This document shows, in pieces, positions 2,157 to 42,192 of a DNA stretch of 64,000 bases (the stretch's first letter is position 1; each line of letters begins with the position of its first letter). Source of the DNA: Mobula birostris (lineage: Eukaryota). The stretch spans positions 98,472,699-98,536,698 of the forward strand of contig NC_092382.1 in NCBI RefSeq assembly GCF_030028105.1, written 5' to 3'. The position numbers and the translations under genes are program-made. The notes under the pieces are model-generated. The model was not told where the DNA came from. It did not search any database and saw only the letters and a program-made list of their open reading frames with translations.

Positions 2157-3073
2157 TCACTGAGGATTAATGCTGTCCTGACAACGCCGAGTGAACTTTG
2201 CCATGAGACTTAAGGGCGATTTCACCGTCTCCTTCAGCTGCAGCCTGAACCTGGCCTGGATCACGACGTAAAGGGCCGTGTTGGTGCAGCAGCTCAGAAT
2301 TTGCAGCATGTATCCCAGCTCCCGCAGAGAATTCGGGGGTATCACGTATAAGTAATAAATCAAGCTATCCCATACGGAATACACCGTCCGCAGCACCCAC
2401 AGCAGGATGAAATTCCCCGACATCACCAGCAGTAACAGGAGGGATTGCCTGCGGTTCTTCATCTTTGGGTCGGCGGGAGTCTCGCCATCGCCCGAACCAC
2501 GGAGTCTCCTCCGGACTCGGCTGGCTAGTAAGACATGTCTGATTGTTAAACTGTTGAGCAGGAGAATCAAGACAAACGGGAATGTTGGTGTGAGGGAATA
2601 ATGAATCAGTTCAAATGTTGCCTCCTGAGATAGGGAAAAGAAACCACGTCCACTCAGACAGAGCAAGGAAGTAAATGACATCGAATATGTCCCGTCGAGC
2701 ATAAAGTACCAGAATATGTTCTTTATGCAGTTCAGCACAGTCACTGTCCAGAGAACCAGAGCCGCCGCTCTCCCGGTGCCGTATTTTCGTTTCAGCTTCT
2801 GAAGACAAATGGTGACAAACCGATCAAAGGTGAAAGTGACGGTGAACCAGACAGAACAGTCCGTGGCGGCGTAGAACACGACGGTGTGGATATTACACAC
2901 GGGAACGCGATGCGACCAAAAGAAAACCTTCATTGGCATCGTGATCTTGCTCAATACCAGATCGAAGAGAACGACGAGCTGATCCGCTGCTACCATGGCA
3001 ACCAGGTACCTTGTGATGCCTTCGGAGAGGCCGCAATTTCCCCGAGACAGGATGACGATTGTCACCACGTTCA
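2157..3073 (-). CDS. GPCR copy 1, coding exon 2 (end of TM1 to C-terminus); rhodopsin-like, GPR139/GPR142-like
   Basis: Hydrophobic TM segments with AADQL (TM2), C..TFDRFVTIC (TM3), LSCCTNTALY (TM7). Splice acceptor tatttccgtccgcacag|TG at 3074/3073 and stop TGA at 2157-2159. Joined to exon 7092-7272 gives 1098 nt = 365 aa + stop. Confidence 0.92.
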
Positions 3074-3239
3074 CTGTGCGGACGGAAATATAGAAGATTA
3101 ACACACTTTCGGATGGACACTTTCTCTGAAAGCAATTATTTTAATCGATAGCCCTCCCAAGAGCAGAGATGAACATGGAATTAATGTAACTATGAAGGAG
3201 ATTATCAGGATCATTATTAACTTGGTAGTGAGTACAATG

Positions 3240-4120
3240 CACCTGCTGAAGTTCAGAAGGATGAGAGGAGTCTCATTGAAACTTATTCAACATTGAAAGG
3301 CCGAGATATCGTGGACGCGGAGAGGGTTGTTTCTGTCGTGGGGGAGTCTACAACCTGAAGACGAGGCTTCACAATAAAAAGACATCCCTTTAGAACGGAG
3401 ATGGGTCGTAATTTCTTCAGACCGAGACAGGTGAATGTGTGGAATTCATTGGCACAGACGGTTCTGGGGTCAGTTCATTGAAACCATTGGCAGAGGAGAG
3501 TGATGGGTGCTTTATTCATGAGGTCGCCGATGGCTACAGGGCTGGGCGCCAGAATGTGGTTGAGTGCGATAATGAATCAGCTACACAGAATGGCGGCGAA
3601 AGCTCGGTGCTCGGCTGGTCGAATTCACCTTCTTCGTAGAATGCGTCTGCGATCCCAATCGACACAATTTTCCCTCATAGTCGAACCACCTCAGCTCTGC
3701 AGTCAACTGGTGAACCGCCTGCACAGCCAGTTTATCCATCCTCAAGTCGGAAGCCCTGAACTGCCCAGTACTGCAAATGCCTCCTCAACAGCACATTGTA
3801 CAGATGCAGCATAACCACCCTGCTGTTAAACTCAATCCCTCTGGCGACAAAGGCGAACATCCCGTTTGCTTTCTTGACAGTCTGCTGCACCTGCAAACCA
3901 ATCTTTTGTGATTTAAAGCACAAGTAATCCGAAGCCCCTCCGCACAGCAGCATACTGGAACCGTTTACCACGTAAATAATATTCTGTTCTTACAATTGTC
4001 CTTCCCATTCGATAACCTCGCATTTACCAACTTTGCACTCCATCTGCCAGACGCTGCTACATTCGCTGAACGTATTAATATCCCTCTGCATGTTGTCAGT
4101 TTCCTCTGCACTCTTTGTGT
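3240..4120. mobile_element. Decayed CR1 LINE 3' fragments in opposite orientations within GPCR intron (paralogous at ~5000-6450, ~22900-24340, ~39090-40550)
   Basis: Translations such as LELRRMRGNLLETYK, RNFFSQR.VN.WN and VKKANGM.AF..RGIE match the CR1 ORF2 C-terminus seen at 52478-53275. Confidence 0.8.
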
Positions 4121-4188
4121 CGGCGACAGATCATGGAAGTGATGATGCCCACGTACCCTTATGCTTTTTAACTGGTGAGACGTTGGAC

Positions 4189-4623
4189 TGTGATATAACT
4201 CGTGGGTATCTTGTGACTGTCTTGTGACCATGATGTAATTGAGTATCTTGTATGAGTAGGAAGGGTTGTGAAGTGTTCATTCGCCAGGACTAGGTCAGTT
4301 CATTTAAACCATTTTATTTCCTTCGCCGTGAATCCATTGGACAGAATCAGCAGTAACGGCACATCTCGAAGACATCCGTTTCCAGAGACGTCTCTCCGTA
4401 TTGACTGTGTAAATCACTTGGGCTTTCGAAGTTACCATTTTAATACTGTGTTCGAATTTACCACTTTAAGAACTGTTCCAGGGTTGCCGCATAGCAGTTA
4501 ACTTCTGGTTAAGTTAGTCGCTTGAATATTTTTCGCTATTACAGAGCAGAATGTAATAAACGTTTGTTTGTTTGTTTATAAAAACTGACACAATTATATA
4601 TTTGTGTTGCGGGTCACATGACA
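4189..4623 (+). mobile_element. Internally deleted solo LTR (Gypsy/Gmr1-like) in copy 1 intron
   Basis: TG...CA ends, AATAAA near the 3' end, and GTTAACTTCTGGTTAAGTTAGT resembling the LTR at 59397-60161. About 350 bp shorter than the copy at 40633-41420. No clear TSD. Confidence 0.7.
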
Positions 4624-7091
4624 TAAGCTATTTGATGTTTATATATTTTCAAATTAATTCCGCTGATACTATATTCTGCCAACATATTTACCCTACCTAA
4701 AAGAACGACTCTCATTTACCTATGTTGAATTCCAAGTGCCTCTTCTTAACGCAGTTTTGTATCCTCTCAAAGTCCAGCTGTAACCTCTGACAGCCCTCCA
4801 CACTATCTACAACGCCCCCAAACTTCTTTCATCACCAAATTTACTAACCCATCGCTCCACATCCTCATCCAGGTGATTTATAAAAATCAGGAAGAGTAGG
4901 AGTGTCAGAACAGATTCCTGAACCACACCACTGGAATCAAATGGATTGGATTGAATTGGGAGACATTAACAAATCGGTGGTGATTATAATATGGCTACTG
5001 TAGTTCAGGATAATGAGGGGAATTTCACTGAAACCTAGCGAACATTGAAAGGCCGAGATATCGTGGACATCGAGAGCGTAGTTTCTGTAGTGGGGGAGTC
5101 TGCACCTGAAGACGAGGTTTCACAATAGAAGGGCTCACCTTGGAACAGAGACGGGGAAAAATTCTTTACCCAGAGGCTGTTGAATGTGTGGAATTCATCG
5201 CCAGAGACAGATATGGTGGCCAATTCACTGGAATCATGTGCAGAGGACAGTGATGGGCTCTTGATTCAACGGGGCGCCGATGACTACGGGACTGGGCGCC
5301 AGAGTGTGGTTGAGAGGGATAATAAATCAGCTATGATAGAATGGGGGAGAAGGCTCGGTGCCCGAATGACCGAATTTAGCTCCCAAGCCTCATGGACTAA
5401 GCAGTGATAACAACGCATGGCTGGAATGCACTCTGAACTTTGGAATCTGAAGAAGGAGGTACAGACGGGAGGTGTTAAGAGAATAACGAACTGATTAATG
5501 TACCAGTGATCACGGTGACAGAAATTCAACACCCTCCATCTGTAAACACGGGAGAAGATGAGAATATAAGAACATTAGTAATAGGAGCAGGAATAGACCA
5601 TCTGTTCAGACTGGCATGCTCCGGCAATGAAAATGAACATCACTGATCTAACCATGCATTCATCGCCTCTTACCTAACTATTCCTCACAGCCCTTAATTC
5701 ATCTAATGCAAAAGCTATGGCAGCCAGTCTTAAATATCTTTATTGATGTAGCCTCCACTACTTCCTTGAGCAGAGAATTCCACACATTCACCAGTCTCTG
5801 AGAGGAGAAGTTCCTGCTCATCCCGGTACTAAATTTACTCCCCAGAATCCTCAGGCTATGTCCCGTAGCTCTAGACGCACCTACCAGTGGAAACAACTTT
5901 CCTGACGCTATCTTATCTATCCCTTCCAGGACTTTATATGTTTCTAGAAGATTTCCTCTCATTCTTCTGAGCTCCAGCGTGCACGATCCCAGTCGACTCA
6001 ATTTCCTCTCATTCTCGGACCACCTCATCTCTGAAATCAACTGGTGAACCGCCTGCACAGCCAGTTTATCCGTCGTCAAGTCAGGAGTCGAGAGGCGCAC
6101 AGTACTCCAAATGTCGCCTCACCAGTACCTTGCGCATTTGCAGCATAACCTCCCTGTTCTTAAACTCAATCCCTCTGGCAACAAAGACTAATTTGCCTTC
6201 TTCATAGCCTGCTGCACCGGCAAACTACCATTTTGTGATTCAAGCACAAGCGCTCCAAAGTCCCTTCGCACAGCAACATGCTGCTATCGTTTACCACTGA
6301 AATAACATGCTGTGCTGAAAATTGCCGGTCCCAAGTAGATGACCTCGCATTTACCAACCTTGCACTCCATCTGCCAGACGCTGGTACATTCGATGAACAT
6401 ATTAATATCCCTCTGCATGATGTCAGCTTCCTCTGCACTCTTTGTGTCGGCGATAAATAAACGCAGTGATAATTCCCACGTGACCTTATGCTATTTAACA
6501 GGTGAGACGTTGGAGCGACTTAATTATTTGTTTAATTCCGTTAATACTATATTCTACCATTGTATTTGACCTACGGAAAAGAACGACCTCACACTTATAT
6601 GTGTTGAACTCCATCTGCCTCTTTTTAACGCAGTTTTGCATCCTATCAATGTCCCTCTGTAAGGTCGCACAGCCCTCAACATTATCCACAACACCCACGA
6701 CTTTAGGTCATCAGCATATTTACTAACCCATCGTTCCACCTCCTTACCCAGGTCATTTGTAAAAATGACGAAGAGTACCTGTGCCAGAACAGATCGCTGA
6801 GGCACAACACTGGTCAACGCAGAACACGACAGTCTGCAACAATACTCTTCATTCTGTGGGTAAGTCAGTTCTGGACCCACATAGCAATGTCCCATTGGAT
6901 CACATGCTTCCTTACTTTCGCAATAAGATTTGCATGGTGTACTTTATCAAATACCCTCAGCCGATGTTTGCTGAAGCGATACCGGTTGGAAAGACCTGTC
7001 TTGCAATTAGCTAGCCGTTCGAGTACAGGTATGAAAGAGAAGCTGCCTTATATCTTTCAACGTAGTCATGAGAAAGAGACGAGACACTTAC

Positions 7092-7272
7092 CAAGAAGTA
7101 CTACAATTGCAAGTACAGGGTAGTAAACCGCTTGGAATGTCAGAAGCGCAAGATAGATTCGAGAGTCCAATGCCAGCCATTCGTAATTGTCAACAAGATA
7201 TGGATACGGCCAGAAAATATTCTTCGCGATTCCCGTAGCACTGGGCTTAGCATTTCGCAGATTACAATCCAT
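7092..7272 (-). CDS. GPCR copy 1, coding exon 1 (N-terminus and start of TM1)
   Basis: ATG at 7272 (MDCNLRNAKP...YYPVLAIVVLL), donor CTTG|GTAAGT at 7092/7091. Its 181 nt (phase 1) matches the phase of exon 2 (G+TG = Val, then NVVTIVILSRG). Confidence 0.88.
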
Positions 7273-7399
7273 TGTTGCGATCGTCTAGATTCCTGTGCGC
7301 GACCCAGCCTCTGTCTTCTCTCTGTCTGCAGCCGCTGGTCTCTGATAACGCGGACTGGCGGCTCTCACTGGCACTGACGTTGTCAGGGTGACATACTAA

Positions 7400-7660
7400 T
7401 AGACCAGGCAACCAGAAACCACTCCTCCGCGCTGACGTCGACAATCCCCACGGACACACCCTTCATTAAATTCTACGGAATGAGAGGTGCAATTAACCCT
7501 TTATTTGCAGACCGTCAGAGAAGCAATACAAACGGAAGTGTATCTAATAATCCCAGAAGTCGGATGTCCACGGACGCGTGCCGGTTCTTAAATGGACACA
7601 ACATTGAGAAACTCATTGAAACACAACTGGATACTGATATACAACCAGTCTGGAAAGGAA
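7400..7660 (-). promoter_or_regulatory. Conserved upstream (5'UTR/promoter) block of GPCR copy 1
   Basis: Block present before all three first exons (also ~25770-26020 and ~42325-42590). Shared strings: GACAATCCC, CCTTCATTAA, AGGTGCAATTAACCCTTTATTTGC. Function is inferred from position only. Confidence 0.5.
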
Positions 7661-7680
7661 GGTGCACGCTGCAAATAATA

Positions 7681-7725: not shown

Positions 7726-7792
7726 CATTAATGACATGCACAGATTAAAAATAAATATTGCATGGATAATTCTTAAAAATTATAGTTGCATC

Positions 7793-12069: not shown

Positions 12070-13331
12070 TGCCACGTACCCCGTGACGGGAATAAAGAAA
12101 CCAGAATAAATAGAATCCACTTTGGAGTTTAGTATTGCTGATAACTAATAATATTTATTAATTACTGCGCAATACAGTAAACTAAATGAAGATAACTCAA
12201 ACAGGTTAACAAAAATTATATATATAAGTAAACACATCAGTAAGTGTGGAAAAATATGAATGGAAAACCAAGCTTCTTAAAGTCTAGGGGTAAACAGATA
12301 CGGTCTTACGATGTTGAGTAAAGTTCTGTTCAGTTCAGTTCGTGGTATTGTGACAAAAGTACACATGTAGGGTGTTAACTGTCCTCTGCTATCACCAGTG
12401 GGATCATCAGTTGATCTGCCACCTGTATTCAGGAGAGAGAGAGATAAGTAAGACAATGGAGCAGCATTTGGAAATGTTAATGAAGAGACGAGAGAGATTA
12501 ATGGAAGGAGACACCGGTCTGAGTATTGTCAAGACCGGCTGCTTTGAACCCTGAACTGTTTGAAGTCTGATGGACAGGCGATACCCCAACATGGGGGATA
12601 AAAAGGGACAGGTTCGCTGAGGCATCAGACACCACACACGACACCACGAGGTAACGAGACCCTGGAAGCGGTGTGCCCCCACAAATCTGTGGGGGTTTTT
12701 GAGGGCTGGTCGCGGGACTAGCCATAGACGTACAGGGTGGAAAGATACGGTCGGCGGGACAAGGTGTGTGTGTCTGCCCTTGCCTGGGTGCCGGGTTCAC
12801 CGCAGAGGAACGATCGTATCTGGAACGGAGGGGTCACAGTCGGTGACCTCAGAAGACACTACAAAGGGCTCGCCCGAAAGCTAACTGCGAGGAATATCGA
12901 AGGTCTGTTTGGAATCGATTTGCATAGTCATTCGTTCTCTCTCTCTCTTCAACGCCACAACAGCGATTACTGCGAACTGAACTAAATTGAACTCTGTCAC
13001 TTGTGATTGATCATTTTACCCCTAGACTGCGATAGAGCTTGATTGATCCTATTATCCTTGTTCTGTGTACGTGGGTGTTTATTCATTGCTGACCTGTTGC
13101 ATTTATATCCTTACTATTAGAGTACTGTGTTGCTTATTTCTTTAATAAAACTTTCTTAGTTCCAGTAATCCAGACTCCAACTGAGTGATCCATTTCTGCT
13201 GGTTAGGCAACCCAGTTACTGGGTACGTAACATAAGTGGGGTTCCCGTTGGCGATTTTGAACGCTAAATTTGGGACGGGGTAAATTGATTGTGTTAAAAT
13301 TCCCGAAAGAAAGAAAAGGCAAACAGCAGAA

Positions 13332-15178
13332 ATGGAGATTCAGGAATTTCTAAAGGCGCCGACCTTGGACGCATTGGAGGATGCCAGGAAAACGGAATTG
13401 GCAGCTGTGGCCAAACGGTTGAATCTTGTTAAGGGGAAGTCGACAATGAGGAGAGAGGAGATGCACAGAGCTATCATAGAGCATTATGTGTCTAAAGGTG
13501 TGTTTCCCCAAGGGGCGCTGGAGATGATGTCTATTGGAAAACCTGGTGAAGACGCAGCACAGGTGCAGATTGAAAAATTGAGACTCGAGCACGAGTTCCG
13601 GGTACGGCAGCTAGAACACGAAGAGAAAGAGAAACAGTTAGAACGGCAAGAGAGAGAGAAACCCTCAGAACGGCAAGAGAGAGAGAAACAGTTAGAACGG
13701 CAGGAGAGAGAGAGAGAGGCAGTTGGAGCGAGAAGAGTGGCAGAGGGAAAGGGAATTCGAGCTGCTGAGGTTAAAGATGAGGGCAGAACAGGGGCCCATG
13801 CCGAACCAAGCTGGATGGCTCAGGGCGACCCAGGAGGTTAGGCTGGTTCCCCCATTTGACGATACCGATGTGGATCGGTACTTTCTCCATTTCGAAAAAG
13901 TTGCTGCACGTCAGGACTGGCCGAGGGATAAGTGGGCTGTTTTGCTTCAGAGTGTACTTAAAGGAAAAGCCCAACAAGCTTACTCAGCTTTGTCCGCAGA
14001 AGATGCTCAGAGGTATGAAGTGGTGAAAGAGGCCATCCTCAGGATTTATGAGTTGGTCCCGGAGGCATACCGGCAGAGGTTCCGGAATGCGAGGAAGCAG
14101 TGGGACCGCACGTATTTAGAGTTTGCCCGTGAGATGCAGAAATATTGTGAGTGTTGGTGCGCCTCGAAGGGGGTAAATGGGGATTATGACAGACTGCTAC
14201 AGCTGATCCTGATTGAGCAGTTTAAAGGTTGTGTCCCTGACGGTATGAGACCCTATATAGATGAGAAAGAGGCAGCCAGGTTAGCTGCAACTGCTAAGCT
14301 AGCGGATGAGTACGCGTTGACACATAAAACTAAGTCTGTCCCGAATAAAGGCTACCAGAAGGGTAGTCAGGACGGCAGGGAGAGTCCGCCAGAAAAGTCA
14401 GTAAGTAAGCCGGGGACTAGTGAGAAGGGTAAGGTAGACCAGGAGCAGTCAGGTAGGAAGTCTCCTGGGGTCGTCTGTTATAATTGTGGGAAAGCTGGAC
14501 GCTTTGCGTCCAGGTGCTTTGCCCCAAAGAAGGAGACGGGAAAGGGAAAGGCGGCGCTTCCGACTGGCTGTATTGAGCTGGTAAACAAACCGCTAGGAGA
14601 GAAAAGGTCTGCCAAAGTTCAGGAATGGGGCGAGAGGTTTATCTCGGCCGGGTTGGTGCCGGTGAAGGAGAGGTTAAACCCAGTTCCAGTACGGATCTGC
14701 AGAGACACGGGAGCGTGTCAGTCATTGATATTAAAGGGTGTGTTAGACTTTAGTTCAGAGACCGAGACTGGGAAAGTCAGGGTCATAAAAGGCATTGGGA
14801 AAGGGACTGAGGCAGTACCCTTGCACCAGATACACCTAAAAAGCGATTTGGTCTCTGGACCAGTCACGATCGTTGAGGCTCGAACTACCGATGAAAGGCG
14901 TGGAGGTCTTACTGGGTAATGACCTCGCCGGGGGAATTGTGTTCGCAGCAGTGAGATTGACCGGTCAGCCTGCCAGCATTGAGGCCCCGCCCATGGACTC
15001 ACAGGTTTATCCCGTTTGCGCAGTGACTCGGCGTGTGTCCAGAAAGACTGCCGAAGTAAATTTAGCTGAGACGTTTCTACCAGCCTTGTACCAGGGGGAG
15101 ATGGAAAGTGAAAAGAAGGAGCATAGTGAAACAGGAGGAAGTGAGGGAGCTGAGGCAGACTTAGCATTAGCCAGGTAG
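13332..15178 (+). pseudogene. gag: gag-protease of the LTR element (frameshifted)
   Basis: Coiled-coil ERQEREK repeats; capsid region (VPPF...YFLHFEK, YELVPEAYRQRFR...LILIEQF, SCAN-like); zinc knuckle CYNCGKAGRFASRC (His replaced by Arg); protease RDTGA and LLGNDL. Frameshifts near 13715 (GA run) and ~14875. Confidence 0.85.
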
Positions 15179-15299
15179 GAATTTGTACAAGCGCAGGACC
15201 GAGACGAGGAGGTGATGGTTTCGGCGGAGACAGATCTCTCTGAAGCAGCATTAAAAAGGCAGCCAGTAGGCTATTGTGTGGAGGAGGCAGTGCTAAGGA

Positions 15300-16400
15300 A
15301 GAAAGGGAGACCAAGTACCGTACCCGCAGATGAGGAATGGGGGATGGCGCCAAAAATTTATGGGGATTAGATTCTTAACCTGGTCCACAAGATACCCCTC
15401 GGTGGACATTTTGGGGGAGGAAAACAGTCGGCGGAATCATGAAAGAAGTTTACTGGCTGCACAGAAGGAAGAATGTTATTGACTATTGCAGACGTGAGTT
15501 AACACAGTTAGAAGCTATTAACATGTTAAAAGTCCACCACGATCAGAAAACAGATCTAGCTGGAGATATCATGAAAATTAATGAGGCTAGGGTGCCACCT
15601 GATAAGGGGAGGACCCATTTTGCAAAGATAAGCGTGGTGCCGACCTGATGGGAGATGTCTATTGTTTTGACCTGTTTTGCTGATAAGTTCTCTCACCTAA
15701 CCCCCGAACAAAGCGGGCATATTGATAAAGCTAATTAAACTGCTAATTAAACAAGTCTAGACGTCCTGAGGCGATGCGAAGGCCTGGGACATGGGGCTGT
15801 TGTCACATCAGGTCAGCCTAGTGAGCAACACCTCTATAGAAAGATTAATTCAGTGACAAACGGGCTAAAGAACACAGAAGTGTATATTGGCAATGTAGTG
15901 GTCTGCAGTAACACCTGGGAGGATCTGTTTAAAAAGCTGTTTGAAGCCAGCCTGACAGTAAACCTCGAAAAGAGTGAATTCGAGCACGAAAAAGTCACTT
16001 ATCTGGGACTTGTGGTAGGACAGGGGCAGCTGGCTCCGATGCAAGCTCAGTTGCGGGCTATCGCTGAAGTCCCCACTCCGACAGACAAGAGAGCCCTGAG
16101 AAGGTTCTTCGAGATGGTGGGGTACTATCGGAAGTTCTGCAGGAAAAAAAAAACAACTTTGCGGATAGTACTCACCCTCATATTAAACCCCTGCCAAAGA
16201 ATGCTAATTGGTATGGGACGACCCTTGTTATCTGTGTCCGGGGCGAAAACCACTGAGAAGTTACACTGATCACAATTCATTAGTGTTTCTGGCCACTATG
16301 AAGTCTGCTTAGTTGGAGCCTGGTTTGAGAGGATTATTAAAATATCACGCATAAAAGGAACAGAAAATGTGATTGCTGACTGTCTGTCAGGTGTTGACAA
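15300..16400 (+). pseudogene. pol: Fragmentary pol remnants (integrase Zn-finger start, RT palm/thumb, RNase H end)
   Basis: H.IPLGGHFG and YW...NVIDYCR, then VYIGNVVV (YIDD position), VTYLG..VG.G and MVGYYRKFC, then HIKGTENVIADCLS. Confidence 0.75.
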
Positions 16401-18127
16401 CTTAAAATTCTCTGTATGAGACAAATAGCTGATGAAGATGTATATTTGTATGTATCCAATGATGCATTCATGCTAGTAATTTTTACCCCGGTAAAAATCC
16501 TTAAAGGGGAGGGGTGTGACAAAAGTACACATAGACTAAGATGTTAACTGTACTGTGCTATCACCAGTGGGATCATCAGTTGATCTGCCACCCGTCGTCA
16601 GGAGACAGAGATAAGTAAGACAATGGAGCAGCAGTTGGAAATGTTAATGAAGAGACGAGAGAGATTAACGGAAGGAAACACCGGTCTAAGTTTTATCAAG
16701 ACCGGCTGCTTTGAACCCTGAACTGTTTGAAGTCTGATGCACAGGCGATACCCCAACAGGGGGGATAAAAACGGACAGGTTCGCTAAGGAAACAGACACC
16801 ACACACGACACCACGAGGTAACAAGACCCTGGAAGCGGTGTGCCCCCAGAAGTCGGTGGGAGTTTTGGAGGGCTGTCGCGGGACCAGCCATAGACACACC
16901 GGGCGGAAAGATGCAGTCGGCGGGAACCTGGTGTATGTGTCCGCACTTGCCTGGATGCCGGGTTCACCGCAGCGGAACGATCGTATCTGGAACGGAGGGG
17001 TCACAGTCGGTGACCTCAGAAGACACTTCAAAGGGCTCGCCCGAAAGCTAACTGCGAGGAATATCGAAGGTCTGTTTGGAATCCGATTTGCATAGTCATT
17101 CGTTCTCTCTCTCTCTTCAACGCCACAACAGCGATTACTGCGAACTGAACTAAATTGAACTCTGTCACTTGTGATTGATCATTTTACCCCTCGACTGCGA
17201 TAGAGCTTGATTGATCCTATTATCCTAGTTCTGTGTACATGTGTTTATTCATTGCTGACCTGTTGCATTTATATCCTTACTATTAGAATACTGAGTTGCT
17301 TATTTCTTTAATAAAACTTTCTTAGTTCCAGTAATCCAAACTCCAACTGAGTGATCCATTTCTGCTGGTTTGGCAACCCATTTACGGGGTACGTAACAGT
17401 ATGTAGTTGAATAGTGATGCAGAGAGAGAGACAGCAAGTTAAGTCTTCAGGTGAGCTATGTCGTCTATTTCTTCGTCGTCCTCCGAATTCCTTCACAAGT
17501 TACAGTCTGGAACTTTAACAACAAAGGGGACAGTACTTCGGTGTGGTTGAGCTGTCTACCCAGGCTAGAGTCGGACACATGGACAACTCCCCACCGGTCC
17601 TGCCTTTGAATTTTCACTGGCAGAGCAATTAGATCAATCCGCCTGATCGATCCTCCAAAACCAACTTTCTCTGCAGGCACAACTAAGCTAATTCAGTGTC
17701 CCGGTCATGTGTCTGAAGTATATATAATATGACCTACTATTTCTTTCACTGTGCTGAGCATCTCCTGTCATTCGAAGAGTCCCTCCTTCCTTTGTCTGTA
17801 AAGGAATGCGAGCAGGCAGCAAGTCCTTGGAAGTAACATCAACAATGTGCTGTCGGTCACCATAGCAACCTTCGAGCTGCTAAGTTTTTATCTCCAAAGT
17901 AAAACTCTAAACTTAACTCCAGTGAAGGTCTAACCGTCAATCTTCGTCACTCTCCCTTTTCCAAACAAACTATCAATGATAAATAACTCTCTCTGTCTCT
18001 CTTCAAAAAGTTAATAGGGGCACTCCTGGATCCCCTCACACTGGCATGTCCCGCAGGACTGAAAGATTACAAACGTCACACTACTCTTTACGAAGTGAGG
18101 AAGGCAAAATCGTCCGGGATGAAGCTG

Positions 18128-20364: not shown

Positions 20365-21833
20365 ATATGGAAATGTATCAACACGCAATGAATATCGAGG
20401 CTATCCGATGAGGAGCCCTTGAAAATCAGTCCATATGTCATGGAAACATGAGGAAATCTGTCATGGTGCAGGTCAATGTCAGGGTTTGAATTTTTGAGGG
20501 GTATTAACTGTTATGATCGTGGTCGTGTGAGTGCTAACGCCCCTGTATCTCCGTCCAGGTGGCAGCAGCGTGAAGAGAGCATGGCCTGGGTCATGGAGAT
20601 CACTGATGATGCATTTTGCTTCCTTGAATCTGCGTTCCTTGTAGACGTATTCTGTCTGGGTAGTTTACTACCTGAGGGTATGAACAGCAGAAACTCCTTT
20701 GTCCACACTCACTACTCTCTCCTGTTCCATCCACGTTCCTGGTTCCTCTCTCGTTTCTTGTTCTCAGCTCACTTACCCATCTTCTCCCCCGGTGAACGCC
20801 CTTCCTCGCTTTCGTGTACTAGCGAGTGTCCTCAGGTTCCCACATCTACGTTCTCGTACAGTTTCCGCCGATCACCGCTCAGCTTCCTACATACCCCGCC
20901 CGATTCTACACTGTCCATCACTTATTTTCACAACCCCCCCGTCAGTAGGCAATCTACCTCATCGTCCCCTCAGCCGGCCCCTTGACCTTTCCAATCCAGA
21001 AAAAGTCTCTCCAAAGTGTCAGCTGTTCATTCTCTTCATTGGAACATGACAGCACCAGAGCAGTCCCGTCGCCCCACAAAGTCGCACTGTGCCAGTTAGG
21101 TAAGTAACCTAATGGCTAACCAATCTTATCTGCTTGAATTATGAGCATGTCCTTCCATTTTCCTCAGAGGCACATGTCTGTATCAGCAGCTCCCCAATGT
21201 CTCCCCTCCTTGTGTCCCTACCACCACACCAGGAAGTGCATCCCATGCACCCACTACTCTCTGTGTAAAGGTCTTGCTCTTTAGAGTTCATTTGAAATTA
21301 CCTCCCGAAGATCCTCCGGCGCCTTGTGTATGTTTCAAATTAAATTTTGGGTCGTCTGTAACATTATTAGTCAACTCATTTACATGCATCCAATTTATTT
21401 ATATGTGTCACAAATCCCGGAACAACTCACTGTCGAACTTATTCTACAGGATGTTATTTCTCCTTTGTAATTAAAATGCGATTCCCGGGTGACAACATTG
21501 AAATCTCCGCATTGTCGACTGCCATCTTCTGCTGGCATACGAATCTACTTTTCTTTTATGTTTGCATAGTGTTATCAAAATCCAGAGGGGTCATAGCCAT
21601 GGACTTACCTGCCTGGGAGATATTACCGTATTTCTCAACCGTTTCGAAGCAACAGACACTGAACTGCCGTATTACTTTGACACAGGTATGATTTCTGTGA
21701 CCACAGTTTCAACCCATCTGCACTTTTACCGAGCCTCCTTCAACATCTCCAACTCCATCACGTCCCAGTGGCCCTTCAATTTGTAATAACCTACCAGATA
21801 AAATGGGATAGCTTGGGCGGTATCGGAGAAGTG

Positions 21834-22747
21834 TCACCGAGGATTAATGCAATCCTGACAACGCCGAATGAACTTTGCCATGAGGCGTAAGGGCGATTTC
21901 ACCGTCTCCTTCAGCTGCTCCCTGAACCTGGCCTGGACCACGGCGTAAAGGGCCGTGTTGGTGCAGCAGCTGAGGAGCTGCAGCATGTAGCCCAGTTCCC
22001 GCAGAGAACTCGGGGGAATCGAATGTAATCTCTCCCATATGGAATACACCGTCAGCAGCGCCCACAGCAGGATGAAATTCCCCGACATAACCAGCAGTAA
22101 GAGGAGGGCTTGCCTGCGGTTCTTCAACTCCAGGTCGGGGGACATTTCGCCATCCCGCGAACCACGGAGTCTCCTCCGGGCTCGGCTGGCTACGAAGACG
22201 TGTCTGATGGTTAAACTATTGAGCAGGATTATCAGGACAAAGGGGAATATTGGGGTGAGGAGGAAATGAATCAGTAGAAATGTTGCCAGCTGAGAATAGG
22301 AAAATAAACGGAAACTGGTCAGGCACAGCAAGGAACTATTTAATGACGAATATGACTTATCGAGCATAAAGTACCAGAATATGTTCTTTACGCAGCTCAG
22401 CACAGTCACTGTCCCCAGAACCAGAGCCGCCGCTCTCCCGGTGCAGTATCTTCGTTTCAGCTCCTGAAAACAAATGGCGACAAACCGATCAAAGGTGAAA
22501 GTGACGGTGAACCAGACAGAACAGTCCGTGGCGGCGTAGAACACAACGGCGTGGATATTACACACGGGAGCACGACGTGACCAGTAGAGAAACTCCATTG
22601 GCACGTTAGTCACCGGAATCTTGTTCAATACCAGATCGAAGAGAACGACGAGCTGATCCGCTGCTACCATGGCAACCAGGTACCTTGTGACGCCTTCGGA
22701 GAGACCGCACTTTCCCCGAGACAGGATGACGATTGTCACCACGTTCA
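21834..22747 (-). CDS. GPCR copy 2, coding exon 2
   Basis: Same acceptor (ccgcacag|TGAAC); TFDRFVAIC and LSCCTNTALY motifs; TGA at 21834-21836. With exon 25460-25640 gives 1095 nt = 364 aa. Confidence 0.92.
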
Positions 22748-24424
22748 CTGTGCGGACGGAAATATAGAAGATTAATACACTTTCGGATGGAAACTTTCTC
22801 TGAAAGCAACTATTTTAATCGATAGCCCTCCCAAGAGCAGAGATGAACATGGAACTATGAAGGAGATTATCAGGATCATTATTAAATTGGTAGTAATTAC
22901 AATGCACCTGCTGAAGTTCAGAAGGATGAGAGGAGTCTCATTGAAACTCATTGAACATTGAAAGGCCGAGATATCGTGGACGCGGAGAGGGTTGCTTCTG
23001 CCGTGGGGCAGTCTACAACCTGAAGACGAGGCTTCACAATAAAAAGACATCCCTTTAGAACGGAGATGGGTCGTAATTTCTTCAGACCGAGACAGGTGAA
23101 TGTGTGTAATTCAGCGGCACAGACGGTTCATTGAAACCATTGGCAGAGGAGAGTGATGGGTGCTTTATTCATGAGGTCGCCGATGGCTACGGGGCTGGGC
23201 GCCAGAATGTGGTTGAGTGCGATAATGAATCAGCTACACGGAATGGCGGCGTAGGCTCGGTGCTCGGCTGGTCGAATTTAGCTTCTGACCCTTATGAGCA
23301 AAGCAGTGAAAGCAATCGATGCCTGAAACGTATTCTGATCTTTAGCACAAGGAGAATGAGTTGCAAACGGGAAGTGTTAGGAGAGTAATGAACGAATTAA
23401 TGTACCAAGTACCAGGGTGACAGAAATTCAACTCCCCTCAGCTGTAAACACGAGAGAAAGTGAGAATATAAGAACATTAATAGTAGGAGCAGGAATAGTC
23501 CATCTGTTCGGACTGGCATGATCTGACAATGAAGAAGATCATGGCTGATCTGACCATGGACTCATCGCCGCATACCTACCTTTTCCTCATAGCCCTTAAT
23601 TCGTCTACTATGCAAAATCTATGGCAGCCAATCTTAAATATATTTATTGAAGTTGCCTCCAGTGCTGCACTGAGCAGAGAATTCCACAATTCACCGGCCT
23701 CTGAGAGAAGAAATTCCTCCTCAACACGGTCCTAAGTTCAGTCCGCAGAATCCTCAGGCTGTGTCCCGTAGTTCTAACCTCCCCTACCAATGGAAACAGC
23801 CTTCCGGCGACTATCTTATCTATCCATTCCATAATTTTATATGTTTCTAGCGACTTCCTTTCATTCTTCTGAGTTCCAGCGAGTACGATCCCAATCGAAA
23901 CAATTTCCCCTCATAGCCGAACCACCTCAGCTCTGCAATCAATTGGTGAACCGTCTGCACAGCCAGTTTACCAATCCTCAAGTCGGGAGACCAGAACTGC
24001 ACAGTACTCCAAATGCCTCCTTAATAGTACCTTGACCAGCTGCAGCACATCCTCCCTACTCTTTAACTCAATCCCTCTGACAACAAAGGCTAACATCCTA
24101 TTTACTTTCTTGACAGTCTGCTGCACCTGCAAACCAAACTTTTGTGATTTAAAGCACAAGTAATCCAAAGCGCCTCCGCACAGCAGCATACTGCAATCGT
24201 TTACCACGTAAATAATATTCTGTTCTTACAATTGTCCTTCCCATTCGATAACTTCGCATTTACCAACTTTGCACTCCATCTGCCAGGCGATGCTATATTC
24301 GCTGAACATATTAATATCTCTCTGCATGTTGTCAGTTTCCTGTGCACTCTTTGTGTCGGCGACCGATCATGGAAGTGATGATGCCCACGTACCCTTATGC
24401 TTTTTAACTGGTGAGACGTTGGAC

Positions 24425-24858
24425 TGTTATGTAACTCGTGGATATCTTGTGACTGTCTTGTGACCATGATGTAATTGAGTATCTTGTATGATTAGGAAGG
24501 GTTGTGAAATGTTCATTCGCCAGGACAAGGTCAGTTCATTTAAACCATTTTATTTCCTTTTCCGTGAATCCATTGGACAGAATCAGCAGTAACGGCACAT
24601 CTCGAAGACATCCGTTTCCAGAGATGTCTCTCCTGATTGACGATGTAAATCACTTGGGCTTTCGAAGTTACCATGTTGATACTGTGTTCGAATTTATCAC
24701 TTTATGAACTGTCCAGGGTTGCCGCATAGCAGTTAACTTCTGGTTAAGTTAGTCGTTTGAATATTTTTCGCTATTACAGAGCAGAATGTAATAAACGTTT
24801 GTCTGTTTGTTTATAAAAACTGTCACAATTATATATTTGTGTTGCGGGTCACATGACA
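24425..24858 (+). mobile_element. Internally deleted solo LTR in copy 2 intron
   Basis: Near-identical to 4189-4623, with the same internal deletion. Confidence 0.7.
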
Positions 24859-25459
24859 TAAGCTATTTGTTTGTTTATATATTTTCAAATTAATTCCGCT
24901 GATACTATATTCTGCCAACATATTTAACCTACCTAAAAGAACGACTCTCATTTACCTATGTTGAACTTCATCTGCCTCTTCTTAACGCAGTTTTGCATCC
25001 TCTCAAAGTCCAGCGGTAACCTCTGACAGCCCTCCACACTATCCACAACGCCCCCAACATTCTTTCATCACCAAATTTACTAACCCATCGCTACCACTTC
25101 CTCATCCAGGTCCCTTATAAAAAAATCAGGAAGAGTAGGAGTGTCAGAACAGATCCCTGAACCACACCACTGATCAACGACCTCAATGCAGAATATGACA
25201 GTCTACAACAACACTTTGCCTTCTGTGGGTAAGCCATTTCTGTATCCGCATAGCAATGTCCCCTTGGATGACATGCCTCCTAAATTTCACAATAAGTCTT
25301 GCATGGGGTACCTTATCAAATACACTCAGCCGATGTTTGCTGAAGCGATACCGGTTGGAAAGACCTGTCTTGCAATTAGCGAGTCGTTAGAATACAGGAT
25401 GAATGAGAAGCTAACTTCTATTTTTCAACATAATCATGAGGAAGAGACGAGACACTTAC

Positions 25460-25640
25460 CAAGAAGAGCTACAATTGCGAGTGCAGGGTAGTAAAACTCT
25501 TGGACTCTCCGAAGCAGGAGACTGATTCGAGTGTCCAAAATCAGCCATTGGTAATCATCAACAAGATGTGGATACAGCAAGAAAACGTACTTCGCAATTC
25601 CTGTAGCATTGGGCGATGCATTTCCAGGATTATAATCCAT
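25460..25640 (-). CDS. GPCR copy 2, coding exon 1
   Basis: ATG at 25640 (MDYNPGNASPNATG...YYPALAIVALL), donor G|GTAAGT, 181 nt. Confidence 0.88.
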
Positions 25641-25769: not shown

Positions 25770-26020
25770 ACCAGCAGCCACACCTCCGCCGTGACGACGA
25801 CAATCCCTACGGACACTCCCTTCATTAAACTCTCCGGAATGACAGGTGCAATTAACCCTTTATTTGCTTCAGAGAAGCGATATCAAAGCAGATTGCAAGT
25901 GTATACAATAATCCCACCAGTTGGCTGTCCACAGATGCGTGCCCTGTCTGTAGATGGACACAAAACTGAGAAACTTTTTGACACACAGCTGGACACTGAT
26001 ATACAACCAGACTGAAAAGG
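25770..26020 (-). promoter_or_regulatory. Conserved upstream block of GPCR copy 2
   Basis: Paralogous to 7400-7660. Confidence 0.5.
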
Positions 26021-36230: not shown

Positions 36231-38001
36231 AGAGTTTATTCCTGAAATATTTATTATAATTACAAATCGAGCGCCGCCCCAACAAATATCAGAGAATGCG
36301 ATTTCACCCTAAATTAATCAGGGAACAATTTACAAAAAGTAATTAACCAACCGGACAGCTCTTTTAAGTGTGAAAAGACAGATGGTGAACACGAGCACAT
36401 TGAACGAGTGGGACATACAGATTGTCCTTACTGAGGACACTGCAAATTATCTCAGATCTCCGACCCTAACCGTTAGGCTAAGGGCCTGCCCACTGTCTTT
36501 GTGGCTGGAATGATATTTTTTAGGGGAAACAGTTCGTATTCTGTCTGTGTAGTTTACTACCTAAGTGTATGAACATCGATTTCTCCAGCACCAACTCCTT
36601 TGTCCCCTCTCACTATTTTCTCCTGTTTCATCCACGTTCCTGGTTCCTCTCTGGTTTCTTGTTCTCAGCTCACTTACCCATCTTCTCCCCCGGTGAACCC
36701 CCTTCCTCGCTTTCGTGTACTAGCCAGTGTCCTCAGGGTCCCACATCTACGTTCTCGCACAGTTTCCGCCGATCACCGTTCAGTTTTTTACATACCCCAC
36801 CTGATCCTACACTGTCCATCACTTATTTTCACCCCCCCCCCGTCAGTAGGTAATCCACCTCATCGTCCCCTCAGCCAGCCCCTTGACCTTTCCAATCCAG
36901 AAAAAGTCTCTCCAAAGTGTCAGCTGTTCATTCTCTTCATTGGAACATGACAGCACCAGAGCAGTCCCGTCGGCCCACAAAGTCCCGCTGTACCAGTCAG
37001 ATAAGTAACCTAATGACTAACCAATCTTATCTGCTTGAATTATCAGCATGTCCTTCCATTTTCCTCAGAGGCACATGTCTGTCTCAGCAGCTCCTCAATG
37101 TCTCCCCTCCTTGTGTCCCTTCCACCACACCAGGAAGTGCATCCCATGCACCCACTGCTCTCTGTGTAAAGGTCTTGCTCTTTGGAGTTCATTTGAAATT
37201 ACCACCCGAAGATCTTCCGGTGCCTTGTGTATGTTTCAAATTAAATTTTGGGTCGTCTGTAACATTATTAGTCAACTCATTTACATGCATCCGAGTCATT
37301 TATAAATATCACAAATCCTAGAACAGCTCACTGTCCAACTTTATCTACAGACTGTTATTTCTCCATTGTAGTTAAAATGCGATTCCCGGGTGACACATTG
37401 AAATCTCTGCATTGTCGACTGCCATCTTCTGGTGGCATACGAATCTACTTTTCTTTTATTTTTGCATAGTGTATCAAACAGCAGAGGGGTCATAGTCATA
37501 GATTTACACGCCGGGGAGATATTCCCGTATTTCTCTATCGTTTCGAAGCAACAGACACCGAACTGTCGTATTACTTTAACACAGTTATGATTTCTATGAC
37601 CACATTTTCAACCTATCTGCACTTTTACCGAGCACCTTCAACTCTCCAACTCCATCACGTTTTGTGTCACTTGGAGGCATATTAATGAATCAGCACAATT
37701 TTCATCCAAATTAAACGCCATTACATCTCCAACACTTGTGACATGCAGAATCGCTGCCCTCCACCCCTAAGCTCTGTCCTCTATGTCCAGGACAAACTGG
37801 AATCCATGCTATCCAATGCAGCTCGGTGTCGTGGATCAGCCTACCGGAAGAGATCAGTCTCAAAAGACCTACTTCCAGTAGGTTCCCAACTGTAGGGCCT
37901 TGGCTAACTCAATGCATCACGGTCCCAGTGGCCTTTCAATTTATAATGACCAATTAACCTACCAGATGCAATGGGATATCTTGGGCGGTATGGGAGAAGT
38001 G

Positions 38002-38927
38002 TCACCGAGGATTAATGCAATCCTGACAACGCCGAATGAACTTTGCCATGAGACAGAAGGGCGATTTCACCGTCTCCTTCAGCTGCACCCTGAACCTGGC
38101 CTGGACCACGGCGTAAAGGGCCGTGTTGGTGCAGCAGCTGAGAAGCTGCAGCATGTAGCCCAGCTCCCGCAGAGAACTCGGGGGAAAAGAATGGAAGTGA
38201 AAATACATGCTTTCCCATATGGAATCCACCGTCAGCAGCGCCCACAGCAGGATGAAATTCCCCGACATAACCAGCAGTAACAGGAGGGCTTGCCTGCGGT
38301 TCTTCATCTCCGGGTCGGCGGGCATTTCGCCAACCCGCGAACCACGGAGTCTCCTCCGGGCTCGGCTGGCTACGAAGACGTGTCTGATGGTTAAAGTATT
38401 GAGCAGGAGTATCAGAACAAAGGGGAATATTGGGGTGAGGAGGAAATGAATCAGTCGAAATGTTGACAGCTGAGAAATGCAAAATGAACGGTTGCTACTA
38501 AGGCAGAGCAAGGAACTATTTAATGACGAATATAACTCATCGAGCATAAAGTACCAGAATATGTTCTTTACGCAGCTCAGCACAGTCACTGTCCCCAGAA
38601 CCAGAGCCGCCGCTCTCCCGGTGCAGTATCTTCGTTTCAGCTCCTGAAAACAAATGGCGACAAACCGATCAAAGGTGAAAGTGACGGTGAACCAGACAGA
38701 ACAGTCCGTGGCGGCGTAGAACCCGACAGCGTGTATATTACACACGGGAAGACGAATTGACCAGTAGTCAAACTCTGTTGGCCAATAAGTCACTGGAATC
38801 TTGCTCAATACCAGATCGAAGAGAACGACGAGCTGATCCGCTGCTACCATGGCAACCAGGTACCTTGTGACGCCTTTGGAGAGACCGCACTTTCCCCGAG
38901 ACAGGATGACGATTGCCACCACGTTCA
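38002..38927 (-). CDS. GPCR copy 3, coding exon 2
   Basis: Same acceptor and motifs; TGA at 38002-38004. With exon 42012-42192 gives 1107 nt = 368 aa. Confidence 0.92.
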
Positions 38928-40632
38928 CTGTGCGGACGGAAATATAGAAAATTAACACACTTTTGGATGGACACTTTCCCTGAAAGCAATTATTTTAATC
39001 GATAACACTCCCAAGAGCAGTGATGAACATGGAATTAATGTAACTATGAAGGAGATTATCAGGATCATTATTAAATTGGTAGTGAGTACAATGCACCTGC
39101 TGAAGTTCAGAAGGATGAGAGGAGTGTCACTGAAACTTATTGAACATTGAAAGGCCGAGATATCGTGGACGCGGAGAGGGTTGCTTCTGTCGTGGGGGAG
39201 TCTACAACCTGAAGACGAGGCTTCACAATAAAAAGACATCCCTTTAGAACGGAGATGGGTCGTAATTTCCTCAGACCGAGACAGGTGAATGTGTGGAATT
39301 CATCGGCACAGACGGTTCTGGGGTCAGTTCATTGGAACCATTGGCAGAGGAGAGTGATGGGTGCTTTATTCATCAGGCTGCCGATGGCTACGGGGCTGGG
39401 CGCCAGAATGTGTTTGAGTGCGATAATGAATCAGCTAGACGGAAAGGCGGCGAAGGCTCGGTGCTCGGCTGGTCGAATTCACCTTCTGAGCTTTATGGGC
39501 AAAGCAGCGATAGCAATCGAATCCTGAAACGTATTCTGATCTTTAGCACCAGGAGAACGAGTTGCAAACGGGAAGTGTTAAGAGAGTAATGAACGAATTA
39601 ATATACCAAGTACCAGGGTGACAGAAATTCAACTCCCCTCAGCTGTAAACACGAGAGAAAGTGAGAATATAAGAACATTAATAATAGGATCAGGAATAGT
39701 CCATCTGTTCGGACTGGCATGATCTGACAATGAAGAAGATCATGGCTGATCTGACCATGGACTCATCGCCGCATACCTACGTTTTCCTCATAGCCCTTAA
39801 TTCGTTTACTATGCAAAATCAGTGGCAGCCGGTCTGAAATATATTTATTGAAGTTGCCTCCAGTGCTGCACTGAGCAGAGAATTCCCCAGATTCATCACC
39901 CTCTGAGAGAAGAAGTTCCTCTTCATTACGATCCTAAGTTTACTCCCCAGAATCCTCAGGCCATGTCCCGTAGTTCTAATTTCACCTACCTGTGGAGACA
40001 ACTTTCCTCCGACTATCTTATCTATGCATTCGATAATTTTATATGTTTCTAGAAGATGTCCTCTCATTCTTCTGAGTTCCAGCGACTACGATCCCAATCG
40101 ACACAATTTCCCCTCATAGTCGAACCACCCCAGCTCTGCAGTCAACTGGTGAACCGCCTGCACAGCCAGTTTATCCATCCTCAAGCTGGAAGACCTGAAC
40201 TGCCCAGTACTGCAAATGCATCCTCAACAGTACATTGTACAGATGCAGCATAACCACCCTGCTGTTAAACTCAATCCCTCTGGCAACTAAGGCGAACATC
40301 CCGTTTGCTTTCTTGACAGTCTGCTGCACCTGCAAACCAAACTTTTGTGATTCAAGCACAAGTAATCCAAAGCGCCTCCGCACAGCAGCAGACTGCAATC
40401 GTTTACCACGTAAATAATATTCTGTTCTTACATTTGCTCTTCACAAGTGGATAACCTCGTATTTACCAACTTTGTACCCCATCTGCCAAACGCTGTCACG
40501 TTCGCTTATATTAATACATTAATATCCCTCTGCATTTTATCAGTTTCCTCTGCACCCGTTGTGTCGGCGATAGATCCTGGAGGTGATGATACCCACGTAA
40601 CCTTAGGCTTTTTAACTGGTGAGACGTTGGAG

Positions 40633-41420
40633 TGTTACATCCCTCGTGGGTATCCTGTGACTGTCTGATGACCATGATGTAACTGAGTGTCTTGTGAGCA
40701 GGATGCTGCAGTGATGTAATTTTCCCGCCAGTGCGAGGTCACGTGATGACATGTTCTCAACAGGTGTAGAACTGGAAACCCCTGCTGTTACGGAGTTTGG
40801 TTCGTTGTGTAATTGGTCATTTACTCCGTTATGCTGCGTCTTGGTCTCAGGACGCAGTTTCATTTTAAAGTGAAGGTTTACTTTCTTTTGTAATTCTAGT
40901 ATTGGAGAGTGAGGATCTTACTAACGTACGGGAGCCTGAAGCATCGAGTAAAGTTGGTGTCGTTCAGGCAGTTTCATAAAGGATATACCTCAGTGATTCT
41001 TCGTTCAGAAACAGTGACCTGCATCTGAGATATCCTGTAAGATAGGGAAGGTTTGTGCAGTGTTCATTCGCCAGGACAAGATCAGTTCATTTAAGCCAGT
41101 TTATTTATTTCGTCGTGAATCCCGTGGACAGAATCAGCAGTATCGTCTCGTCTTCGAGGACATCCGTTTACAGAGAAGTCTCTCCTGATTGACTGTATAA
41201 ATCAACTGGAATTCCGAAATAACCGTTTTAATAGTGTGTTCGAAGTTACCACTTTAAGAACTTTTCCAGAGTTGCCGTATCGCGGTTAACTTCCGGTTAA
41301 GTGAGTCGTTTGAATACTTCTCGGTATTGGTGAGCAGAGTTTAATAAATGTTTGTTTGTTTGTTTGTTTGTTAATAAAAACTGACTCAATTATATTTTCT
41401 TTGCTGTTGATCACGTGACA
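40633..41420 (+). mobile_element. Full-length solo LTR in copy 3 intron
   Basis: TGTTACA...CGTGACA, 788 bp, at the same intron position as the deleted versions; similar to LTR 59397-60161. Confidence 0.75.
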
Positions 41421-41422
41421 GA

Positions 41423-41454
41423 ATTTCTTTCTTTCTTTCTTTCTTTCTTTCTTT
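41423..41454. repeat. (TTTC)n microsatellite
   Basis: Direct reading. Confidence 0.9.
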
Positions 41455-42011
41455 ATTTCCGCTAATACTATATTCTGCCATCATATTTAGCTACCTAAAA
41501 GAACGACCTCACACTGATCTACGTTGTACTCCATCTGCCCCTTCTTAACGCAATTTTGCATCCTATCAATGTCCGGCTGTAAATCTGACAGCCTTCCACA
41601 CTATCCACAACGACCCCAACCTTTTATCATCACCACATTTATTAATCCATCGCTCCACTTCCTCATCCATGTCATTTATAAAAATCAGGAAGAGTCGGGA
41701 TGCCAGAACAGATCAATGAAGCATACTGCTGGTCAACGACTTCAATGCAGAATATGACCGTCTACAACAACACTTTGCTCTCAATGGGCAAGCCATTTCT
41801 GGATCCACACAGCAATGTCCACTTGGATCACATCCCTCCTTGCTTTCACCATAAGCCTTGCATTATCAAATACACTCAGCCGATGTTTGCTGAAGCGATA
41901 CCGGTTGGAAAGAGCTGCCTTGCAATTAGCCAGTCGTTAGAGCACAGGTTTGAAAGAGGAGCTGACTTATATTTTTCAACATTAATCATGAGGATGAGAC
42001 CAGATACGTAC

Positions 42012-42192
42012 CAAGAGGAGCTACAATTGCGAGTACCGGGTTGTAAACCACTTGGAATGTTCTCAGCCCAAGATAGACTCGATAGTCCAACGTCAGCAAT
42101 TCGTTATTTTCAACAAGACTTTGATACGCCCAGAAAATATTCTTCGTGATTCCCGTATCATTGGGCATAGCATTTCGGAAATAATAATCCAT
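42012..42192 (-). CDS. GPCR copy 3, coding exon 1
   Basis: ATG at 42192 (MDYYFRNAMPNDTG...YNPVLAIVAPL), donor G|GTACGT, 181 nt; homologous to the other first exons. Confidence 0.85.

Follow-up and report, generated by a model that had tools for sequence, protein, structure and literature searches.

Three clustered receptor genes of Mobula birostris and the expanded GPR139-related family to which they belong

A stretch of 64,000 nucleotides of the ray Mobula birostris (NCBI RefSeq assembly GCF_030028105.1, contig NC_092382.1; G000:C17:98,472,699-98,536,698 in the coordinates used below), called here the window, carries three G-protein-coupled receptor (GPCR) genes, A, B and C, all on the minus strand. 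They lie in a cluster of 83 related copies and belong to a family of at least 907 loci in this ray genome. The family is related to the orphan receptor GPR139 and distinct from it. Its extracellular loops (ECL1 to ECL3) vary, while the transmembrane helices (TM1 to TM7) are under purifying selection. The genes, the family and the selection on it are described below, and the functions that such a repertoire may have are weighed.

Genes A, B and C and the surrounding cluster

The exons and introns of the three genes are located in the window as follows.

7092..7272, minus strand: gene A exon 1 (start codon, extracellular N-terminus, first part of TM1), placed by splicing and translation
3074..7091, minus strand: gene A intron, phase-1 GT-AG, 4018 bases
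2157..3073, minus strand: gene A exon 2 (rest of TM1 to stop), with ECL1 at 2948-2895, ECL2 at 2696-2610 and ECL3 at 2372-2334
25460..25640, minus strand: gene B exon 1
22748..25459, minus strand: gene B intron, phase-1 GT-AG, 2712 bases
21834..22747, minus strand: gene B exon 2, with ECL1 at 22622-22560, ECL2 at 22361-22275 and ECL3 at 22037-22011
42012..42192, minus strand: gene C exon 1
38928..42011, minus strand: gene C intron, phase-1 GT-AG, 3084 bases
38002..38927, minus strand: gene C exon 2, with ECL1 at 38802-38740, ECL2 at 38541-38455 and ECL3 at 38217-38179
20646..24487, no strand assigned: duplication footprint (gene B exon 2, downstream and intron DNA), matching 36535-40695 around gene C at 90-91%

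A preliminary description of this DNA had proposed three intact two-exon GPCRs, and each gene indeed gives a stop-free translation once the phase-1 GT-AG intron in TM1 is spliced out. In all three the intron falls immediately ahead of the TM1 Asn. The proteins are 365 (A), 364 (B) and 368 (C) amino acids long and match Pfam 7tm_1 at 53.8-71.6 bits (cut-off 30.5). Seven helices are seen, with moderate confidence, in an AlphaFold model built on an alignment of 44 sequences (mean predicted local distance difference test score, pLDDT, 69.6; predicted template modelling score, pTM, 0.56), and the TM-score of the model to class A receptors is 0.6-0.7. The 7tm_1 match, the seven-helix fold and the activation motifs thus identify A, B and C as class A (rhodopsin-like) GPCRs.

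All nine loop peptides listed earlier were recovered on the minus strand in the expected places. The similarity of the cores and of the adjacent intron DNA held as well, exon 2 with its flanking intron being 88-90% identical at the DNA level, and so did the frame-preserving indels: the length differences among A, B and C are confined to loops and the frame is kept. The exon-2 proteins are 76-89% identical to each other. Besides the loops, exon 1, which encodes the extracellular N-terminus, is variable too. No additional exon 1 or exon 2 that would mark a fourth copy was found elsewhere in the 64-kb window. A copy 99% identical to exon 2 of gene B lies at G000:C17:99.69 Mb on the other strand. 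The closest named proteins are from Mobula (87% and 76-80%), the nearest UniRef match being a Mobula hypostoma protein (87%), and then from Hypanus (70%).

The tandem array proposed for the window proved to be part of a cluster of 83 copies. A protein query was used for the search, and 129 of 5,139 first-look candidates were scored. Among these, 83 copies are 78-100% identical, 76 of them at 98.15-100.02 Mb and seven at 101.10-101.21 Mb. The orientation is inverted within the cluster, the copies as far as 99.09 Mb being on the minus strand and those from 99.11 Mb onwards on the plus strand; two opposed arms meet near 99.10 Mb. Exon 2 occurs in 78 distinct sequences among the 83 copies. Five rows contain a stop and 78 of the 83 are stop-free. 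A DNA search (best 40 of 1,452 candidates) yielded a further copy that the protein search had not listed and that is shorter by one base. Exon 1 was located in all 54 cluster copies whose upstream DNA was examined, and 51 of these 54 satisfy a strict rule for intactness; of the other three, one has lost its start, one contains a stop and one has an in-frame deletion. Both cysteine columns of the TM3-ECL2 pair are invariant in all 83 copies.

Some stretches of the contig recur. The region at 101.1-101.2 Mb repeats that at 98.15-98.19 Mb with identical coding sequences, and 99.58-99.61 Mb recurs at 99.79-99.81 Mb. These repeats may be recent segmental duplications or assembly duplicates.

Size of the family and its relation to GPR139

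The spread of the family was followed with two exact patterns. A 32-base pattern from the end of TM3 has 907 exact matches genome-wide and a 28-base pattern from TM7 has 769; the reversed-pattern control gave 0 in each case. On contigs C1-C11, for which both lists are complete, the patterns have 96 and 88 hits with 47 in common, and in the cluster 57 of 73 are common. Scaling by this overlap gives about 1,000-1,700 loci, a rough estimate, with recall differing between subfamilies. The family has at least 907 loci in this ray genome. Intactness was examined in 40 hits taken at steps from the first 100 listed, a non-random sample from C1-C12 only; exon 2 was intact in 25 of the 40, and one more had an open frame. 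The birth-and-death pattern described earlier is borne out by the 83-copy cluster, by the number of loci and by the occurrence of intact and broken copies.

About 89% of the pattern hits lie beyond C11, many of them on C12, C17, C24, C33, C34 and small contigs. Given the identical copies, some of the loci may be recent segmental or assembly duplicates. Other subfamilies extend over tens of megabases (G000:C17:0.8-93 Mb, C24:54-68 Mb and C33:2-38 Mb), with equal-scoring copies far apart, and several C17 copies have kilobases of flanking DNA in common at 85-96%. Contigs C17, C24 and C33 look largely built from receptor-bearing duplicated units. At G000:C11:57.1-58.6 Mb, family hits come back about every 200 kb, as a large tandem unit with several receptor genes, and two copies sampled there have unusually long open tails.

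Relatives were also found outside this genome, 1,678 UniRef clusters (90% identity) being matched at E<=0.001. Among the matches listed are proteins of Mobula, Hypanus, Narcine, Rhinoraja, Leucoraja, Heptranchias, Heterodontus and Pristiophorus; a set of 20 representatives adds Scyliorhinus, Rhincodon, Stegostoma and Chiloscyllium. In trees, deep subfamilies are common to sharks and rays. Judged from these sequences, cartilaginous fishes in general carry the family.

Human GPR139 is the best match of the family profile among solved structures (61.5 bits; next 40.9), and it ranks first in Foldseek by a small margin. When the solved structures were queried with a single sequence, GPR139 could not be told apart from opioid or muscarinic receptors (30-31 bits); the ESM Atlas gave no function, only the automatic name under which RefSeq lists members of the family. 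The TM1 intron that the preliminary description gave for GPR139 is present in the ray GPR139 gene; the shared intron position was checked and found in that gene (L101) and in L091 and L093. With the phase-1 intron before the TM1 Asn and GPR139 as its best solved relative, the family falls in a GPR139-related superclade.

The members of the family are not GPR139 orthologs. The ray's own GPR139, L101, is a separate single-copy gene on G000:C11 and is 22.5-23.8% identical to the window proteins. An approximately unbiased (AU) test rejects the grouping of the family with GPR139 (p 0.009). The statement in the preliminary description that A, B and C are not ordinary GPR139 orthologs is thereby upheld. 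Two further conserved single-copy GPR139-like genes, L091 (G000:C18:55.2 Mb) and L092 (G000:C3:115.3 Mb), are distinct both from GPR139 and from the expanded family. Both have bony-fish relatives and Arg at 6.51, and L091 is 61% identical to a coelacanth protein.

In a tree of 50 proteins the family joins an amphibian lineage with support of 100/100, and in a tree of 32 proteins an amphibian-plus-sturgeon lineage with 100/99; support for the family alone is 84/86 and 86/71, respectively. A tree that joins the family to the L091/coelacanth lineage and leaves the amphibian lineage outside was rejected by the AU test (p 0.007). The phylogeny that had been suggested earlier was thus obtained for GPR139, grouping with which is rejected; the ray search that found L101 gave one match, and GPR142 was not recovered and is absent from the trees. 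A search for the sister lineage gave 25 matches, comprising 20 amphibian clusters at 66-74% (query included), a sturgeon protein at 46% and four shark or skate proteins at 32-33%; the search was word-seeded, and absence elsewhere is not implied. When the sturgeon protein was searched against the ray, 136 of 4,043 candidates were scored and none exceeded 34%, which is what co-orthology of the expansion with it would predict. On these trees and searches, the sister of the family is placed as a single-copy orphan gene of amphibians and sturgeon, and the lineage extends beyond cartilaginous fishes, to which the expansion itself is confined. Outside GPR139, three lineages are thus distinguished: coelacanth, teleost and frog proteins with ray L091; an anchovy protein with ray L092; and amphibians with sturgeon. 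Three non-mammalian GPR139-related orphan subtypes (GPR210A, one unnamed and GPR210B) have been reported in bony fishes and coelacanth (PMC6504862). The three non-GPR139 lineages found here are comparable, and one of these subtypes may be the sister of the family. In its available text that survey includes no shark and reports no expansion.

The "probable GPR139" models of cartilaginous fishes in RefSeq and UniRef belong to the same family as the window genes. The RefSeq label "probable G-protein coupled receptor 139" is automatic and hides the non-orthology to GPR139. Some members are labelled otherwise, as vasopressin V2-like or capa receptor-like.

Loops, pocket and upstream DNA

Selection was measured on 74 of the 83 cluster copies after nine rows had been dropped (five with a stop, four exact duplicates). 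The region-wide ratio of nonsynonymous to synonymous rates (dN/dS) was 0.94 in loops, 0.45 in helices and 0.51 in the intracellular parts, and helices remained at 0.36-0.50 across analyses, indicating purifying selection. Models with a positively selected class were favoured, twice the log-likelihood difference (2dL) being 62.7 for M2a over M1a and 52.8 for M8 over M8a.

The signal was resolved in clade B, a group of 32 copies that includes genes B and C. On a tree of their own the loops gave a 2dL of 35-42, with 31% of sites at dN/dS 3.3-3.4, within an overall range of 3-5. In a recombination null with a separate tree per loop, the largest value among 105 simulations was 33.8, and none came up to the 34.9 of the real data. 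Taken singly, each with its own tree, ECL1 and ECL2 both give a significant 2dL of about 10. Removal of seven mosaic-looking copies left a core of 25, which excludes the window genes. In this core, dN/dS of the loops under M0 is 1.63, with 38 replacement and 8 silent variant codons, and 34 of the 38 are single-base changes; the helices have 32 replacement and 32 silent variant codons, and no positive class was found in the intracellular parts. The 32 unique frames of clade B contain 0 stops, whereas about 17 are expected under neutrality. Tree-free estimates for the clade are pN 0.106 and pS 0.103 (nonsynonymous and synonymous divergence) in loops and pN 0.016 and pS 0.046 in helices. Divergence of the proximal intron is 0.070, and 0.156 over a longer, less reliably aligned stretch. 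Gene conversion and episodic positive selection have thus both acted on the loops. Of the site-wise comparison suggested in the preliminary description, the part that stands is a class above 1 in clade B with helices under purifying selection; the loop average is about 1, and clade D has no such class.

The signalling core is conserved. All 43 aligned family sequences have D3.49, R3.50, P5.50, N7.49 and Y7.53, and W6.48 is present in 42 of them; P6.50 and P7.50 are replaced in the window genes. Pocket positions 3.29, 3.32, 3.33, 5.43, 6.51 and 7.38 are variable across the 43 sequences. The GPR139 site is anchored by R6.51 and N7.38, and GPR139 has no cysteine at 3.25 or in ECL2 (PMC5430874). 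The window genes retain the aromatic 3.33, H5.43 and W6.48 of this site. Position 7.38 is Tyr in A, B and C, and Arg at 6.51 is found in gene A alone, as the only one of the 43 sequences. The TM3-ECL2 cysteine pair is present in the family, unlike in GPR139.

The DNA upstream of the start codons contains a conserved block of about 25 bases.

7478..7502 (approximate limits), minus strand: conserved upstream block of gene A, about 200-230 bases before the start codon, candidate promoter element
25837..25861 (approximate limits), minus strand: the same block, gene B
42400..42424 (approximate limits), minus strand: the same block, gene C

The block is alignable also in three distant family copies (L082, L084 and L086), which have about 58% protein identity to the cluster; the rest of their upstream DNA aligns poorly. 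The block is a candidate shared promoter element. Odorant-receptor promoters carry a homeodomain motif together with an O/E site. A promoter of this type was considered for the family and rejected, the homeodomain word being present in 16 of 57 upstream regions and the canonical O/E core in 5 of 57. The window contains no array of a 26-base satellite ahead of the genes. No RNA set was listed for exon 2 of gene B. In four RNA contig sets, whose RNA origin is a guess, no joint spanning the intron was found at 80% likeness. Short, low-depth pieces lay on exon 2 and the cover of the intron was repeat-derived, so that these sets are uninformative either way.

The remaining DNA of the window contains remnants of mobile elements. 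A decayed long terminal repeat (LTR) retrotransposon lies between genes A and B at 12349-17398; its terminal repeats (12349-13232 and 16515-17398) are 93% identical and enclose a gag-like frame with a SCAN domain (13696-14916) and broken polymerase pieces. A CR1/L2-type long interspersed nuclear element (LINE) remnant at 49954-53272 has esterase (GDSL-like), endonuclease and reverse-transcriptase pieces, and further LINE fragments fill the introns and spacers. A second LTR-type remnant, at 56553-58714, has a reverse-transcriptase piece and integrase-like frames, the latter recognised by eye.

A proposed repertoire for outside ligands and its alternatives

The reading preferred here, with a probability of roughly 0.55, is that A, B and C are intact members of a cartilaginous-fish expansion that works as a repertoire for ligands from outside the animal. 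Copies arise by tandem and segmental duplication, and purifying selection holds their frames open and their signalling motifs fixed. The outer face is diversified by positively selected point substitutions in ECL1 and ECL2, seen in one subclade, and by exchange between paralogs; across the family, pocket positions differ as well. Each receptor would then bind its own outside ligand through its own loops and signal through a common G-protein core. The ligands are probably peptide-like or have an aromatic group. A long disulfide-tied ECL2, the loop-centred selection and the peptide-receptor relatives suggest this, as does the aromatic floor of the GPR139 pocket, kept in the cluster while the polar anchors are mostly lost.

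Several observations weigh against such a repertoire. Five identical pairs occur among the 83 copies, equal scores recur across C17, and 15 of the 40 sampled loci fail the intactness rule. Because many copies are identical or nearly so, functional diversity lies below the locus count. The "pocket-diversifying" pattern claimed earlier is only partly retained: the loops differ and the pocket varies across the wider family, but the deep pocket is near-constant within the cluster. As for selection, ECL3 tested alone in clade B has no positive class, and clade D (22 copies) has a loop dN/dS of 0.30 and none either. Averaged over whole loops, pairwise dN/dS is only 1.03-1.06, since the loops also have about twice the synonymous divergence of the helices. 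Recombination tests are positive in clade B (p 0.024) and clade D (p 0.002). With the synonymous excess, this means that the loop contrast stems in part from older genealogies and from conversion. The codon code was self-written with branch lengths fixed up to a scale, and the recombination null omits breakpoints inside a loop and site-wise variation of the synonymous rate. In the available text on a catshark brain-plus-olfactory library, the 50 most specific genes include no GPCR (PMC11979771), a weak result because single receptors are lowly expressed.

The copy number could instead be a by-product of duplication-prone chromosomes, the copies being largely redundant, with loops drifting or shuffled and a core under weak purifying selection. 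The location of about 89% of the pattern hits beyond C1-C11, the dense spreads on C17, C24 and C33, the identical copies and the inverted cluster would fit, as would the loop pN/pS of about 1 and the neutral-to-purifying loops of clade D; larger batoid genomes are also reported to have more tandem duplicates (10.1101/2025.06.08.657570). This explanation is nevertheless rather unlikely, as clade B lacks the stops expected under neutrality, the class with dN/dS>1 survives both the recombination null and the removal of mosaic copies, and deep subfamilies are common to sharks and rays. Selection on the outermost loops, its episodic occurrence between subclades and the constant deep pocket within the cluster would also be seen if the receptors had an internal function in common and the exposed loops varied to evade pathogens, parasites or their proteins. 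Such evasion leaves the thousand or so loci and the wide pocket variation across subfamilies unexplained and is considered improbable.

Slightly less probable again are receptors for peptides made by the animal itself, neuroendocrine or reproductive ones such as gamete or pheromone peptides, that diversified together with an expanded ligand family. The invertebrate receptors for MIP/sex peptide, proctolin and FMRFamide form a group with GPR139 (PMC12208981), and the conservation of the single-copy sister gene, 66-74% among amphibians, is what an endogenous ligand would lead one to expect; hundreds of copies or positive selection are, however, rare among receptors for endogenous peptides, and a ligand family to match was not seen, no search aimed at it having been made. 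That the genes are duplicates of GPR139 or GPR142, class A orphans activated by L-Trp and L-Phe, and sense these amino acids is very improbable. GPR139 is the best match by profile and fold, the intron position is identical and three pocket residues are retained in the window genes, but the ray has a separate GPR139 of low identity and the AU test rejects the grouping. Moreover, N7.38 is replaced by Tyr in A, B and C, R6.51 is limited to gene A, and GPR139 is without the cysteine pair of the family. Of the GPR139 pocket, R6.51, N7.38 and E3.32 are mostly replaced in the family.

Chemosensory epithelium (nose, taste or skin) is tentatively proposed as one possible site of action for a repertoire directed to outside ligands, and immune sentinel cells are a somewhat weaker candidate. 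The OR, TAAR, V1R/ORA, V2R/OlfC and TAS2R receptors resemble the family in their clustered compact genes, birth-and-death, hundreds of copies, fixed core and variable ligand face; the ray family differs from them in being another lineage that matches Pfam 7tm_1 only. In formyl-peptide receptors and MRGPRs the clusters are lineage-specific, the extracellular loops are under positive selection and the ligands are peptides. They are of an unrelated lineage, and the ray family exceeds them in size by one to two orders of magnitude. The literature presents cartilaginous fishes as relatively poor in olfactory receptors, the catshark having 2 OR and 6 OR-like genes and 32 V2R genes (PMC11979771); the largest V2R cluster reported, with 65 genes, is from the red stingray (10.1101/2025.06.08.657570). 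It is conceivable, if doubtful, that the family forms a hitherto unrecognised class of vertebrate chemoreceptors in its own right, and the chief one in sharks and rays, in which a thousand or so receptors, expressed sparsely in sensory cells and derived from a single neuropeptide-type orphan gene, would offset the near-absence of odorant receptors.

No description of this expansion was found in the literature searched, most subscription journals lying outside the search. The Squalomix survey of batoid tandem clusters does not name GPR139 in its available text (10.1101/2025.06.08.657570), and its figure labels or supplements may list it; in PMC12294341, GPR139 appears in a reference only. With this family, a GPCR repertoire has expanded from a lineage in which no such repertoire was known. 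Cartilaginous fishes have been credited with a relative paucity of GPCRs (PMC8455134), and at least 907 loci under the label "probable GPR139" overturn that GPCR-poor count, whatever their function. The single-copy sister gene of amphibians and sturgeon offers a laboratory handle, in Xenopus and axolotl, on the ancestral ligand and tissue. If the receptors are sensory, they would explain, in a way open to test, how many chemicals can be detected by sharks and rays, from which only a few dozen receptors are known; if they are immune, the oldest jawed lineage would possess a large system of innate recognition.

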